Assembly: GCA_041082215.1 (NCBI GenBank)
Contig: JBDOIF010000111.1
Coordinates: forward strand, 62,001-102,175
Length of the DNA: 40,175 nt
Reading direction: 5' to 3'
Source: Anaerolineae bacterium
Lineage (GTDB): Bacteria > Chloroflexota > Anaerolineae > B4-G1 > DUEL01
In this document: one piece after another, positions 8,326-25,356 of the stretch
Position numbering within the stretch: the first letter of the stretch is position 1
Layout of the letters: every line of letters starts with the position of its first letter
Notes under the pieces: generated by a model
What the model saw: the letters and a program-made list of their open reading frames with translations, nothing else
Told to the model about the DNA's origin: nothing
The model's database searches: none
Position numbers and translations under genes: made by a program

Positions 8326-11343
<3,018 letters not shown>

Positions 11344-13321: not shown

Positions 13322-13684
13322 TCAGGGCTCGGGGGGGCATCCCCGGGCCTCCCACTCCCTCCACTCCTCCTCCATCCGCATCTCGGCCGACACCCACTCC
13401 CCATGGACGCGGCGCACCAGATAGCTGGAGACGCAGTCATGCCACTCCGCGTGGGGGCAGCTCCAGCAGCGGTATCCGACCCGGACGCACCAGATCTGCT
13501 CCACTCCGGCTGTCTCGTCCTCGGGCAGCAGGTCGGCTTTGCGGGCGGAGAGGATATAGGGCTGCTCCTCGGAGGGAAAGGAGGCCAGCACCGCCTCTCT
13601 GGCCTCCCTGGGCAAAGAGGAACAGGCGACGAGAAAGACCAGCAGCAACAGACCCCCGCCGCAGCAAATCGAACGGCCCTTCAT
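13322..13684 (-). CDS. Cys/Trp-rich putative lipoprotein
   Basis: LLLLVFLVAC lipobox; mature part has five further Cys; GGAGGGG RBS upstream. Confidence 0.7.
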   Translation of the reverse strand: MKGRSICCGGGLLLLVFLVACSSLPREAREAVLASFPSEEQPYILSARKADLLPEDETAGVEQIWCVRVGYRCWSCPHAEWHDCVSSYLVRRVHGEWVSAEMRMEEEWREWEARGCPPEP

Positions 13685-13739
13685 CACACCACCCCTCCAC
13701 TATGGAGTATAGACCGACAGGGTGAAGCTGTCAATCTTG

Positions 13740-13978: not shown

Positions 13979-14007
13979 GAAATTCAGCCCGATCGAGGAG
14001 GTTTAGA

Positions 14008-15249
14008 ATGCGAAAGACCTGGTTCCCGCTGGCTGTGGGGGCCTTGCTGATGATGGCTGTCGGGTGTGGTGGTGGGCAGACCACTCCTACCAGCAATGTC
14101 CCCACGCTGGAGACCACTGCCACGGCAGAGGCCTCGCCCCCGCCGACAAGCTCGCCCGGGCAGGCCGCCTGTCGGGCCGTCTCCCCCGTCGGCTATCCCG
14201 TTGACGACGTTCCCCCGGTCACCGACCAGGATTGGTCCATCGGCCCCGCCGACGCGCCGGTCACTCTGATCGAGTACGCGGACTTCCAGTGACCGGGCTG
14301 CGCAGGGATGCATCCCCTGCTGGCGCGTCTGGTAGACGTGCACGGAGACAATCTGCGGTTCGTATACCGGCACTTTCCGTTGAGCTTTCACGATAAATCC
14401 ATGATCACCGCCGAGGCAGCAGAGGCCGCCGGGGCCCAGGGCCACTTCTGGGAAATGCACGATCTGCTGTACGAACGATACCAGGAATGGATCCAGTTCT
14501 CCGCTGACCAGATGCCTCAGGTACTGGCCGGCTACGCCCGGGAGCTTGGGCTGGACGTGGACCGATTTATGCGGGACCTGGAGAACCATACGTTCCAGGA
14601 GAAGGCGCAGGCCCAATACGAGGAGGCGGTGAGGTTGCAACTGCCCGGCACCCCCACTTTCATCGTCAACGGTCGAATGTATCCCGCCGACCAGTGGGGT
14701 CTTTCCTATCTGGGCGTGGACGCTTTCATCCGGCTGGCGACGCTGAAGCAGTACGACGCCCCACCGCCCCAGGTGATCGAGCCTGGAAAGCAGTACCGGG
14801 CCACCATCCGCACGGCGAAAGGGGACATCGTGATCGAACTCTACGCCGACCAGGCACCGGTCAACGTCAACAGCTTTGTCTTCCTGGCCCGGGATGGGTG
14901 GTACGACGGCATTATCTTCCACCGCGTCATCCCGGAGTTCGTCGCCCAATCCGGCGACCCCACCGGCACAGGGGCTGGCGGGCCGGGCTATCAGTGCGAC
15001 GATGAGATCGGCGGGCTGTCGTTCGATCAGGCCGGCATCGTGGGGATCGCCAACGCTGGCCCCAACACCGGCGGCAGTCAGTTCTTCATCACCCTTTCCC
15101 CTCAGCCTGGCCTGGACGGGCGCTATACGATCATCGGCAAGGTGGTGAAGGGGATGGACGTGCTCCAGAGCCTTGCCCCCCGCGATCCCGGCGACCCGGA
15201 AGCTCCGGCCGGGGACGTGATCGAGACCATCCTCATCGAAGAACAATGA
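14008..15249 (+). CDS. Lipoprotein: DsbA/thioredoxin-like domain with selenocysteine (U95-P-G-C98; TGA at 14290-14292) fused to a cyclophilin-type peptidyl-prolyl isomerase, 413 aa
   Basis: ORFs 14008-14292 and 14308-15249 are in the same frame. The read is [22 protein letters not shown], so TGA occupies the first Cys of the CxxC. Also [28 protein letters not shown], and cyclophilin motifs [19 protein letters not shown] and [15 protein letters not shown]. Lipobox MAVGC. Confidence 0.88.
14302..14341 (+). promoter_or_regulatory. Candidate bacterial SECIS stem-loop(s) immediately 3' of the Sec codon
   Basis: GCAGGGATGCATCCCCTGC hairpin (14302-14320) and GCGCGTCT-GGT-AGACGTGC hairpin (14323-14341). 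Confidence 0.5.
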
Positions 15250-16499
15250 CGGAGATCGAGGCAGGCCCAGGAGGACTGTTGGGACCAGAGGGGAGCGGGA
15301 GGGTGGGGGCGTCCTCCCCTCCCTCCCTCCGCCAGCTCTTAGGGCTGGCAGGGGCAGTGGTGGGGCTATCTGTGGCCTTCGCCTCCTGTGTCTGCGGCCC
15401 TGCGATGACCGTGCTGGTTGAGCTGGGCAGCGAGATCGCTCTGGACGAGATGGCCGTCCAGCAGACGCTGGCTCTGTCGGTGCTCGGAGGCGGACTGGGG
15501 CTGGCTGTGGCGCTGGAGGGCTGGCGGGTCTGGCAAAGACGTCCCTCTCCCCCCTTCCACCCTCAAAGGACCTGGGTGCTGTGGCTGATCCTTCTGCCCC
15601 TCCTGATGACCGGCTTCCTGGTCTCCACGATGGACCTGGCCCCTGCATACCTCCTCCCCTTCATCAATACCCTTACAATGTTGCTGTTGCCAGCCCTGGT
15701 CCTCGGTATGGTGGGGCGGGCGCTGGGCGGAGCCGGCGGAAGCTGGCGGGATGTGCTGGGAGGGGTGGTAAGCGGTGCCTCTCTGGGCACCGGCCTGGCC
15801 GTCGTCCTCGAGATCGGCCTGCTGGCCTTTCTCGTCGCTGGCGCGCTGGTGATGGGGCTGCTCCCTGCGGATTTGACCAGCCTGGAGTCGTGGGAAGGGC
15901 AGCTCAATGACCCCAGCCTCCTCTACGATCCTGAAACCCTGCTTGAGCTCCTCAGCCCGACTGTGATCGCGGCGGTCTTCCTCTTCGTCGCCGTGCTGAC
16001 CCCCCTGGCGGAGGAGATGACGAAGACCCTGGGAGTGGGGATTGCGGGGGCGTGGCTGCGCCCTGCCCCCGCGCGCGCCTTTCTGTTGGGGGCAGCCTCC
16101 GGGGCGGGGTTTGCCCTGGCGGAGAACCTGCTGAACGGCGCCATCATCGGCAGCCTGTGGGGGCCGGGGACCCTGAGCCGGCTGGCGGCGACGCTGATGC
16201 ACTGCGCTACCGGCGGGCTGATGGGCTGGGGCTGGGGAGAGCTATGGGGTGGGAAACACCCGTGGCGGCTGGTGTTGAGCTTCACCGGGGCGGTGATGGT
16301 CCACGGAGTGTGGAACGGCCTGGCCGTAGGGGCCGCTGTTGGAGGGCTGATGGCCTCCGCCAGTGAGGCCGATCCGGCTCAGGCCGCCGCTGCTGGCCTG
16401 GCGGTGGCGGTGCTGGTGGTCCTGCTGATGCTGATCGCTATCGCAGCTCTGGTCGGGATCGTGTGGGCAGCGCGGAGGTTGGGACAGAAGACCGTCTAA
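15246..16499 (+). CDS. PrsW family glutamic-type intramembrane protease
   Basis: Multiple TM helices; [19 protein letters not shown] and HGVWN motifs; ATGA overlap with the upstream gene. Confidence 0.88.
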
Positions 16500-23170: not shown

Positions 23171-24577
23171 TCACCTTTCCAGCTCGCTCCAGATTCGCAC
23201 CAGATGTCCGATATCCTCACACACCAGGTCCGGCTGTACCGGGGAGGCGATGAGGTCGGCCCGGGTGGTGATGCCGGAGAGGACCAGGATGGTGAACAGC
23301 CCCAGCCGGACCCCGCCGGCGATGTCCGTATCCAGCCGGTCCCCCAGGACGCCGGTGGTTTCCGGGACAGCGCCCATCCGTCGCATCGCCTCCCGATACA
23401 GCCAGGGTTCCGGCTTGCCGATGACCAGCGGCTCCGTACCGGTGGCGGCCCGGAGCGCGGCCAGCTCGGCTCCGGTCCCTGGCACCAGCCCCTCTTCGCT
23501 GGGGAAGCTCACGTCCGGGTTGGTGCCGATGAGCGCTGCCCCGCCCCGGATCAAGAGCGCCGCCCGGGCCAGCTTCTCCCACGTCAGCCCTCGATCCCAC
23601 CCGACGATCACGTAACGGGCCTCGTCCTCTGCGAGCCGGAACCCCCGCTCGGCCAGCGCAGCCCGCAGGCCCTCCTCACCGATGACGTAGACAGGCGTCC
23701 CCTCCGGTTCGCGGGAGGCCAGGTAGGCGGCAGTGGCCTGGGCCGAGGTCAGGATACACTCCAGCGGCACCTCTACCCCGAAGCGGGCCAGTTGCTCCAT
23801 ATATTGTTCTGCCCGCCTGCTGGCGTTGTTGGTCGCCATAATGAACCGGACCCCCCGTTGTTGCAGAAAGTCGAAGAACCCCTGGAGCCCGTCCATCGGC
23901 CGACCGCCCCGCCAGAGCACGCCGTCCATATCTATAATCAGGTGGCGGATATGGCGAAGAGCAGAGGGTTTCGAATCCGGGGAGGGAGGAAGGTACAGGG
24001 ACAGCCGCCGATAGTCCTCTGGTGTGTCCACGTCCATCAGGAGGGTGGAATCCTCCACTTCCACAGTCGCCACCTCTTCCGCATAGCGGGCGATGAGTTC
24101 CCTTCCCCCCGTATCCCCCTCCACACCGGCCAGCTCCGGGAAGAGGGAGCGGTGGAAGAGGACGGGGGTGGCCCGTCGCCCCCCGGCGACCGGGTGGACG
24201 ATCCGGGCCTTGCCTTCCTGGAAACGTTCGATCAGGCGGCGGAGCAGGCTGGCCGGGACCAGGGGCTGGTCGGCCTGGAGGAAGACGGCCCCTTCTACGT
24301 CGGGCGGGAGGACGGCCAGGCCAGCCTGGACGGAGGTGCTGAGCCCTTCCTCCCAGCGCCAGTTCATTACCAGCACAACGGGGCGGCCGGCTACGGCGGC
24401 ACGGACCTCCTCTGCCGCATGGCCCAGCACAACGGCGACCGGGTCAAGCCCTGCTGCCAGGGCCGCGTCCGCCGCACGGACGACGAAGGGTTTCCCTTCC
24501 CAATCCAGAAGCTGCTTGGGCCGGCCGAAGCGGGAGGAGCCGCCAGCAGCCAGCACAACCCCGGCAATCCGGCTCAT
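23171..24577 (-). CDS. Fusion of MocA/YgfJ-like molybdenum cofactor nucleotidyltransferase and HAD-IIA (NagD-like) phosphatase
   Basis: N-half: VVLAAGGSSRFGRPKQLL, GLSTSV, ADQP, GDTGGR, DVDTPEDY. C-half: IIDMDGVLW, TNNA, TNPD, GKP, GDRLDTDI, VLSG. ATGA overlap with yqeC. Confidence 0.88.
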   Translation of the reverse strand: MSRIAGVVLAAGGSSRFGRPKQLLDWEGKPFVVRAADAALAAGLDPVAVVLGHAAEEVRAAVAGRPVVLVMNWRWEEGLSTSVQAGLAVLPPDVEGAVFLQADQPLVPASLLRRLIERFQEGKARIVHPVAGGRRATPVLFHRSLFPELAGVEGDTGGRELIARYAEEVATVEVEDSTLLMDVDTPEDYRRLSLYLPPSPDSKPSALRHIRHLIIDMDGVLWRGGRPMDGLQGFFDFLQQRGVRFIMATNNASRRAEQYMEQLARFGVEVPLECILTSAQATAAYLASREPEGTPVYVIGEEGLRAALAERGFRLAEDEARYVIVGWDRGLTWEKLARAALLIRGGAALIGTNPDVSFPSEEGLVPGTGAELAALRAATGTEPLVIGKPEPWLYREAMRRMGAVPETTGVLGDRLDTDIAGGVRLGLFTILVLSGITTRADLIASPVQPDLVCEDIGHLVRIWSELER

Positions 24578-25356
24578 ATCCACACCTCCAGGACGGGATC
24601 GGTGCGGTGCAGGTCGGCCAGCACCACCCGGCGGATGCGCCGGCCCAGGAGCAGAAGCCGTGCGACGTCTGCCGCCTGGGGGTGGGGGGATGCGTCCTGC
24701 TGAGTAAGGAGGACGACCGCTTCGGCGCGGGCCGGAACGCCTTTCAGGCCGCCGGAGGCGTGGCCGACCAGGCTGGCGAAGAGATCGGGGGTGAGGGAGG
24801 TGGCGGGTGGGACGTGGAGCAACTGGGCGGCCGCTGGGGCGCTTTGAGGTACGGACTCCTCCAGCGGTCGGCCCAGGGCTGCCAGCCCTGCCAGAACCAC
24901 CACCCGGTTTGCGGCTGGCGGGATTCGAGGCTCCCCCGGCACTCTCAGCGGTTGCTCCTGTTCTGTGTCCGCTTCCACCACCCAGGTCACGCCGGGCAGC
25001 CTCCGCGCCAGCTCCCCCAGCAGCTCCGGTTGTATCCCCTGCAGCCGGACCGGCTCAGCCGGGTAGGGACTTTGGGCTACCAGGCGGGGATCGGTGTGTC
25101 CCACCCTTCCGGCGGCCAGGACCAGGGCCGGCGAATCGGCCAGAGCGGAGGCGATAGCAGCAGGCTCCGGCCGTGGGGAAAGGATCAGCGGAGCCCCTTT
25201 GGGCAGGAGGATTTCCGTGGTGGTGGTGAGGACAACGGGTGAATCCGCGGAGACCAGGAGCCGAAGTGTCTTCCAGGCCGCCCTTACCCGGCCTCTCCCT
25301 CCGACGAAAGCAACCAGCTCACCGGGCTGTATCCCAAGGGCCTCTTCCAGCTTCAT
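24574..25356 (-). CDS. yqeC: YqeC-like selenium-cofactor biosynthesis protein (degenerate P-loop)
   Basis: ELVAFVGGRGR, VVLTTTT, VVEAD..QPLRVP..EPRIP, GLAALGRPL, GGLKGVP; adjacent to a MocA-like gene. Confidence 0.72.
   Translation of the reverse strand: MKLEEALGIQPGELVAFVGGRGRVRAAWKTLRLLVSADSPVVLTTTTEILLPKGAPLILSPRPEPAAIASALADSPALVLAAGRVGHTDPRLVAQSPYPAEPVRLQGIQPELLGELARRLPGVTWVVEADTEQEQPLRVPGEPRIPPAANRVVVLAGLAALGRPLEESVPQSAPAAAQLLHVPPATSLTPDLFASLVGHASGGLKGVPARAEAVVLLTQQDASPHPQAADVARLLLLGRRIRRVVLADLHRTDPVLEVWI

Follow-up and report, generated by a model that had tools for sequence, protein, structure and literature searches.

The window analysed here, a stretch of 40,175 nucleotides from an Anaerolineae bacterium, carries on its plus strand a gene for a predicted exported selenoprotein in which a DsbA-like domain precedes a cyclophilin domain, and which is followed by a gene for a PrsW-like intramembrane protease (Table 1). 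Within the frame 14008-15249, the sole internal stop is the TGA at 14290-14292, in the context EYADFQ-TGA-PGC (U-P-G-C). Our frame check agrees with the first-pass annotation of this DNA, which had described two ORFs that share a frame and are interrupted only by a TGA at the first cysteine of the motif, and had expected gene callers to split the gene. Indeed, the ORF listing cuts it into two pieces of the same frame, 14008-14292 (94 aa) and 14308-15249 (313 aa), and the 313-aa piece is present in databases. GC3 is 0.81 upstream and 0.80 downstream of the TGA. A promoter scan found nothing on the plus strand.

Table 1 Features of the seleno-lipoprotein locus, in positions of the window.
Feature	Position	Strand	Basis
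Seleno-lipoprotein gene, 413 aa: signal peptide, Pro/Thr-rich linker, BdbD/DsbA-like domain, cyclophilin domain	14008..15249	+	
Ribosome-binding site AGGAGG, 6 nt 5' of the ATG	13996..14001	+	seen in sequence
Predicted lipoprotein signal peptide ending at Cys20 (A-V-G-C; Ala at -3, a relaxed lipobox)	14008..14067	+	
Cys55, probable structural disulfide partner of Cys330	14170..14172	+	co-occurrence
Thioredoxin-fold DsbA class II (BdbD-like) domain, residues 74-226	14227..14685	+	PF13462, PF01323
UGA codon 95, read as selenocysteine (U95)	14290..14292	+	TGA/Cys exchange; Sec machinery
Proximal hairpin H1, lying 3' of the UGA and 5' of the SECIS loop; candidate spacer-shortening element or alternative SECIS	14302..14320	+	
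Distal hairpin H2, predicted SECIS: 8-bp stem, 3-nt loop GGU at 14331-14333, 38 nt past the UGA	14323..14341	+	
Cyclophilin domain, residues 266-413	14803..15246	+	PF00160, 139 bits
Cys330 (P-G-Y-Q-C, cyclophilin domain), which probably pairs with Cys55	14995..14997	+	
Gene for a PrsW-like intramembrane protease; it overlaps the stop codon (ATGA), and co-transcription is likely	15246..16499	+	PF13367, 36.7 bits

The PF13367 match of the downstream gene lay above the cut-off in a six-frame search and was missed by hmmscan. Among eight neighbouring ORFs tested, the PrsW-like gene was the only one to recur beside relatives of the fusion gene, together with a glycosyltransferase in one locus, flanks being short; a PrsW-type motif lies downstream in 31 of 87 relatives, and in 24 of the 48 loci with enough flank. 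Several other features of the window deserve mention. Many unrelated contigs match the intergenic segment 13900-13948 upstream of the gene, with high summed depth, which suggests a repeated element. On the minus strand, a sigma-70-like promoter (13706-13734, 11/12) lies upstream of a divergent ORF (13322-13687) for a Cys-rich, lipoprotein-like protein of 121 aa with no Pfam match. Further away, the alpha and beta subunits of glycyl-tRNA synthetase are fused in one ORF of 1005 aa (8326-11343), and a YqeC-like gene stands beside a MobA-like/HAD fusion on the minus strand (23171-25356). YqeC and MobA-like genes are often tied to selenium-dependent molybdenum hydroxylases.

Other assemblies bear on the identity of the codon. 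Thirteen public runs match the stretch wholly or partly, seven of them at half or more of its words, all seven being hot-spring metagenomes from two studies, of which one may be where this DNA came from. Contigs from four of the 13 runs (three DNA, one RNA) were compared, and none of the four listed another letter at 14290-14292, with neither TGC nor TGT in place of TGA. Two contigs that cover the whole stretch share the same four differences within the gene, all synonymous. A 154-nt contig of the RNA run also spans the TGA unchanged, which is weak evidence given a depth of 3.8 and possible carry-over of DNA. With differences confined to synonymous sites and GC3 even on both sides of the codon, the gene shows no sign of decay, and the TGA is not an assembly error.

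To collect relatives, 301 genomes of the class were searched; 208 gave a match at E<=1e-40, and in many cases the cyclophilin part alone was matched. Named relatives were added by a GTDB contig scan, in which the full-length ones were Chloroflexota, mostly Anaerolineae. The sample for codon 95 comprised 30 loci of the class search (the gene itself among them), 40 further regions and 80 loci of the GTDB scan; 102 alignments reached codon 95, 90 of these were full-length fusions, and 87 remained after dropping three duplicates. In these 87 distinct relatives, codon 95 is TGA in 33 (including the gene itself), TGC or TGT in 48 and another codon in six, so that homologues carrying either Cys or TGA at this position do exist. 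Each of the 33 TGA alignments contains one stop only, at codon 95. Such recurrence of TGA at one position, always as the lone stop, is more than chance. The Sec label requires 15 changes on a quick tree (unrooted, and with the trait columns kept in the alignment), so that Sec and Cys have been exchanged repeatedly at codon 95, with no direction, gain or loss, implied.

Some relatives stand apart. Six loci of one family (f38; L125, L135, L136, L145, L147 and L151) have Ser, Thr, Ala or Asp for the first cysteine in genomes that have selA and selB, with the cyclophilin site intact in five of the six; their products may be a monothiol or redox-dead form. One locus (L121, G019 C16) holds a tandem pair in which a Sec lipoprotein copy precedes a Cys copy whose anchor is of the transmembrane type and whose cyclophilin is degenerate; a PrsW-like gene comes next.

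The host genome (96% complete) encodes SelA, SelB, SelD and tRNA-Sec, all above cut-offs, and the selD gene itself has an in-frame TGA; the machinery on which the Sec reading of the first-pass annotation depended is thus found elsewhere in the genome. Among the 68 carrier genomes tested, selB was present in 33 of 33 other TGA-carrying genomes and selA in 31 of them, and selB was also found in 28 of the 35 carriers without the TGA form. Five of the 68 genomes, one of them 64% complete, have neither selA nor selB, and none of these has the TGA form. The correlation with Sec machinery is one-sided, because most Cys forms also occur in Sec-capable genomes. Two genomes of family f27 (G071, L035 on C34; G112, C147) have the fusion gene immediately after selB. 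From the comparisons of codon and machinery, we regard 14008-15249 as one gene whose UGA codon 95 is decoded as selenocysteine, with a probability of about 0.97.

The host genome has further Sec candidates, whose loops lie at about 18-27 nt. These are at C7:64554-65096, C37:6392-6934, C83:46007-46549, C100:77503-77979, C14:19109-19531, C24:941-1348 and C29:40895-41278, and they comprise an HdrA-like CxxU protein, two FdhA-like UH proteins, an MvhD-like protein, an AhpC-like TxxU protein and another two genes of the redoxin family, each having one TGA (UxxC; CGU). We presume the HdrA-, FdhA-, MvhD- and AhpC-like names from motifs, which does not apply to the redoxin name. A coding-score scan for the selenoproteome missed both the fusion gene and selD, and the candidates are hence no census.

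In the gene's own sequence, the 56 nt from the TGA onward showed no unusual fold against shuffles (z -0.79), and the SECIS was therefore sought by comparison of relatives. The distal hairpin H2 has at least seven of its eight pairs in 25 of the 33 TGA genes, three of the 48 Cys genes and none of the six others, and its loop begins with G in all 25 TGA genes having at least seven pairs. Changes on both sides are seen in five of the eight pairs, and pairing holds in 96.5% of cells, far above slid controls. This covariation set held 18 of the 33 TGA rows, leaving out eight near-identical rows of one genus and seven rows without H2, a choice which favours structure; the 33-versus-48 count is free of that selection. 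Seven TGA genes have another hairpin instead, with its loop at 23-29 nt. Three Cys-codon genes (L020, L010 and L043) keep the full distal hairpin and probably represent recent Sec-to-Cys changes; L020 falls inside a genus that is otherwise all-TGA.

The proximal hairpin H1 was weak when counted in a fixed register (14/33 TGA versus 7/48 Cys genes), since registers differ among genes, and a synonymous-codon control was used instead. Relative to synonymous-codon resamplings, the H1 segment folded more stably in 25 of the 27 TGA genes with at least six H2 pairs (mean z -2.1; z -2.6 in the gene itself), in 18 of 48 Cys genes (mean z -0.5) and in none of the six remaining TGA genes. These figures are given without a p value, since the genes compared are related to one another and hence not independent. 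In two members of the DsbA-cyclophilin family (L128 and L146), H2 is decayed and the proximal hairpin carries the G-loop. A generic hairpin scan of the host genome returned 371 matches in 37,010 TGAs with flat spacing, which is background, and no hairpin sequence motif was shared with other Sec codons of that genome.

Compared with the published bacterial SECIS model, which places the apical loop 16-37 nt from the UGA (bSECISearch; PMC13188914), H2 has the same 3-nt loop starting with G, the same 8-bp stem and the same location within the coding region, whereas its spacing of 38 nt lies one base outside this range and a separate, selected hairpin stands in front of it. The miss is marginal, as the spacing becomes 37 nt if the closing U-A pair is counted as open. 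A structural paper puts the loop G at about 20 nt from the UGA (PMC4605307). A canonical SECIS is present in 87.4% and absent in 12.6% of BSepDB entries, and text searches found no paper on a two-hairpin bacterial SECIS.

A similar arrangement was seen in selD. A search of 30 genomes gave 27 selD matches, all with TGA, which makes 28 of 28 including the host's own copy (C139, L004). In these 28 sequences (L004, L170-L196), a distal hairpin with its loop about 32-33 nt past the UGA is present in 25 and a proximal hairpin at z<-1 in 20. The selD hairpins have mean z values of -1.9 and -1.5, weaker than in the fusion family, and selD offers no Cys control. In two sequences (L181 and L196), the distal hairpin is decayed and the G-loop lies on the proximal one; a worked example of BSepDB, for a Synergistota selD, assigns the SECIS to a proximal hairpin with a G-loop. 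The comparison points to two possible SECIS positions, and the proximal hairpin would serve as a folded spacer wherever the distal one is in use. SelB would then bind the distal hairpin, with its loop 38 nt downstream of the UGA, and the proximal hairpin would fold in between and bring the SelB-bound loop nearer to the ribosome.

Reading through codon 95 gives a 413-aa product in which residues 74-226 match Thioredoxin_4/DSBA and residues 266-400 match Pro_isomerase, with all matches above their Pfam cut-offs (PF13462, 82.1 bits; PF01323, 57.5 bits with a cut-off of 25.6) and with UxxC present. Landmarks of the DsbA domain are U95-P-G-C98 and Thr215-Pro216, a putative cis-Pro loop; C98 is kept in 85 of 87 relatives, P216 in 87 of 87 and U or C at position 95 in 81 of 87, the first cysteine being lost in six. 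An AlphaFold model of residues 43-413, built from 84 sequences, reached a pLDDT of 96 and a pTM of 0.89 for both domains together. Its DsbA half aligned with BdbD (3eu3) at Z 22.3 over 179 residues with an rmsd of 2.5, and its cyclophilin half matched cyclophilins at Z about 24. No solved chain spanning both domains was among the fold-search matches, which cannot show absence.

The N-terminal lipobox and the intact cyclophilin domain reported by the first-pass annotation both held up. Cys20 follows a hydrophobic leader, 84 of 87 relatives match a lipobox pattern, and the host genome encodes both Lgt and LspA, which suggests that the product is exported and lipidated at Cys20. The cyclophilin domain retains R306, F311, Q314, A348-N349, Q358, F360 and L369, so that the catalytic Arg/Phe/Gln set is complete; G368 and Y373 stand at what we take to be the positions of W121 and H126 in human CypA. 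This set is intact in the gene itself and in 52 of 87 relatives and degenerate in 35, including 12 of the 33 Sec forms. Five loci (L059, L066, L082, L092 and L156) in Thermoflexales-type genomes encode a longer form of about 600 aa in the order cyclophilin, DsbA and degenerate cyclophilin.

A cysteine near position 55 occurs in 50 of 87 relatives, and a second one in the cyclophilin domain or linker accompanies it in 45 of these 50 as against none of the 37 without it; at least two of the five rows counted as lacking a partner are pattern misses. From this co-occurrence, we infer a structural Cys55-Cys330 disulfide and an oxidising location.

The product is very probably an exported foldase. 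This part of the earlier proposal of a 413-aa membrane-anchored foldase stands; its further claim, that selenol chemistry is coupled to prolyl isomerisation, needs qualifying: the two sites are lost independently (35/87 and 6/87), and obligatory coupling of the disulfide and isomerase activities is not supported by the alignments. Comparison establishes the recoding signal, the domains and the family, while lipidation, disulfide, redox direction and substrates are predictions. The lipid at Cys20 and the Pro/Thr-rich linker would tether the enzyme to the outer face of the membrane, where U95-P-G-C98 of a monomeric BdbD-like domain would make and rearrange the disulfides of exported proteins. 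The cyclophilin, packed on the DsbA domain and probably stapled to it by Cys55-Cys330, would isomerise prolyl bonds of the same substrates or hold them. Failed recoding would release a 94-residue stub, and selenium supply may limit the enzyme, to judge from E. coli fdhF. Sec recoding efficiency in E. coli is put at 30-40% (PMC4513850).

As for the net direction of the redox reaction, an oxidase/isomerase is the best explanation, which we hold with little better than even confidence. The gene product is the only PF13462 match in the host genome. Neither DsbB nor VKOR was found in this genome (96% complete) or in six of six other genomes of its family. VKOR is present in 49 of the 68 carrier genomes and DsbB in seven, one a weak match with stops, and Sec use showed no link to VKOR presence (24/33 Sec genomes versus 25/35 others). 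In relatives with VKOR, VKOR would reoxidise the enzyme; in the host family, reoxidation by small molecules would take its place, as proposed for the DsbA of S. aureus and C. botulinum. DsbAs that act without a membrane partner are described (PMC12453122).

The lack of DsbB and VKOR in the host family, while a CcdA-type electron donor is present, speaks against the oxidase reading. The same lipoprotein would then be kept reduced by a CcdA-type protein and act as a disulfide isomerase, reductase or repair enzyme (DsbG/ScsC-like) in which Sec is advantageous, a reading that we consider unlikely though worth weighing. A CcdA-type gene lies elsewhere in the host genome (L158, G000 C16:19560-20960), followed by a molybdopterin oxidoreductase gene (PF00174) and a lipoprotein-like ORF without CxxC; DsbD, ScsB and CcdA are described as the reductants of isomerases (PMC5403849). 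VKOR is also missing in families f3, f5 and f27, the top NCBIfam match is the family that a review calls DsbG-like (PMC13188914), and ScsC-type folds also score high (Z 19-21). A reduced isomerase is at odds, however, with the absence of a dimerisation domain, with BdbD as the best thioredoxin-fold match, and with the probable Cys55-Cys330 bond, which needs an oxidant where the product is the sole PF13462 protein of the genome. Moreover, ccdA is unlinked to the gene, and other redoxin-family genes may be the partners of CcdA.

In general, Se-S bonds exceed S-S bonds in stability, which would weaken an oxidase. The product might also be mainly a chaperone or holdase at the membrane surface that serves envelope quality control together with the PrsW-like protease, its catalytic sites being secondary. 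Persistence of the fusion where the first cysteine (6/87) or the cyclophilin site (35/87) is gone fits this idea, as does the PrsW-like gene directly downstream in half of the loci with enough flank. Yet a UGA and its covarying SECIS are expensive to maintain, which points to selection acting on the redox residue, positions 95 (U or C) and 98 are kept in 81 and 85 of 87 relatives, and both catalytic sites are intact in the gene itself, which makes this reading improbable. That the TGA is a true stop, whether by nonsense mutation, by assembly error or in a split gene restarting at Met101, has a negligible chance: although an in-frame ATG at 14308 opens the 313-aa ORF present in databases (P0002) and the local fold 3' of the TGA is ordinary against shuffles, relatives with TGA at this codon span eight family codes, hairpin occurrence is tied to TGA genes, the codon is invariant in other assemblies whose other differences are synonymous only, and the 313-aa form would be without leader and CxxC and has no clear ribosome site 5' of Met101.

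Selenocysteine in DsbA- and DsbG-like UxxC proteins has been predicted since 2005-2006 (PMC1088965, PMC1794560), and a 2026 review lists both, including a lipoprotein family, in its Table 1 of 119 families, from which a cyclophilin fusion is absent (PMC13188914). The lipoprotein family is that of Rcas_1661 (NCBIfam NF041057), given there as 'DsbG-like protein, UxxC'. Its members likewise combine a lipoprotein with a thioredoxin/DsbA-type domain and UxxC, and 84 of 84 aligned fusion members match the model (best E 5e-39), but our protein scores 92.9, below the cut-off of 190, and the model spans 247 positions without a cyclophilin. No NCBIfam 20.0 model was above cut-off for the protein, and none of the seven models matching any of the 84 members is specific for the fusion. 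The DsbA-like selenoprotein form 1 from the Sargasso Sea (PMC1088965) shares UxxC and a PF01323 match above cut-off; it was assigned to COG2761, from which our protein is set apart by description, as its domain fits PF13462/BdbD better, is exported and is joined to a cyclophilin.

The DsbA class II oxidases BdbD (3eu3), corynebacterial DsbA/TsdA (4pwo, 4pwp, 7unn), which are closest by sequence, and S. aureus DsbA (3bci) match by fold at Z 22.3, 19.1 and 16.3, and share with the product the CxxC position, the Thr-Pro loop and a membrane anchor; Sec for the first cysteine, the fused cyclophilin and the lack of a detected DsbB or VKOR set it apart. Its cyclophilin has the fold and the catalytic Arg/Phe/Gln of PPIases (PF00160; M. 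tuberculosis PpiA, 1w74), but is the C-terminal domain of a lipoprotein, has no Trp121 equivalent and is degenerate in 35 of 87 relatives.

Text searches found no paper on a DsbA-cyclophilin selenoprotein fusion; the deep-Sep main text has no passage on DsbA, cyclophilin or Chloroflexi, and that of BSepDB nothing on DsbA or cyclophilin, a portion of its supplement giving species rows only. BSepDB covers Anaerolineae and may hold such genes under a DsbA/DsbG label. Among the best 120 database matches, 68 have Cys at position 95, 33 start downstream of codon 95 and 19 lack the DsbA part; U or X occurs in none of the 120. The fusion is already visible in annotation, since the JGI name for Cys forms is 'cyclophilin family peptidyl-prolyl cis-trans isomerase/protein-disulfide isomerase'. 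Several high-scoring database proteins of about 590-660 aa with cyclophilin matches only (P0027, P0043, P0044, P0051, P0057 and similar) are probably multi-cyclophilin proteins.

While Sec in UxxC DsbA/DsbG-like proteins is known, the cyclophilin fusion, the distant two-hairpin SECIS and the missing reoxidant are added here. We tentatively propose, at somewhat less than even confidence, that Anaerolineae use a tandem-hairpin, long-range SECIS. Selection on the proximal hairpin would act on its folding and not on its loop sequence; by spanning the intervening distance, this hairpin would allow a SelB-binding loop 33-38 nt from the UGA to function, and over evolution the binding loop could shift from one hairpin to the other, as seen in this family and in selD. 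On the same proposal, the locus encodes an uncatalogued exported Sec foldase, its UxxC domain and cyclophilin stapled together, without DsbB or VKOR in this lineage. The gene corrects a family-wide annotation error, in that 33 of the 120 best database matches start past the Sec codon and none has U, and it extends the selenoprotein catalogue by an exported enzyme with a fused domain. Close relatives with Sec in one and Cys in the other form natural pairs that offer a handle on the effect of selenium on the redox potential of DsbA-type proteins outside the cytoplasm. Two points rise above the routine: the lineage's missing reoxidant, and the distant two-hairpin SECIS, common to selD of the class, which lends itself to testing directly the distance from the UGA over which a bacterial SECIS can act.
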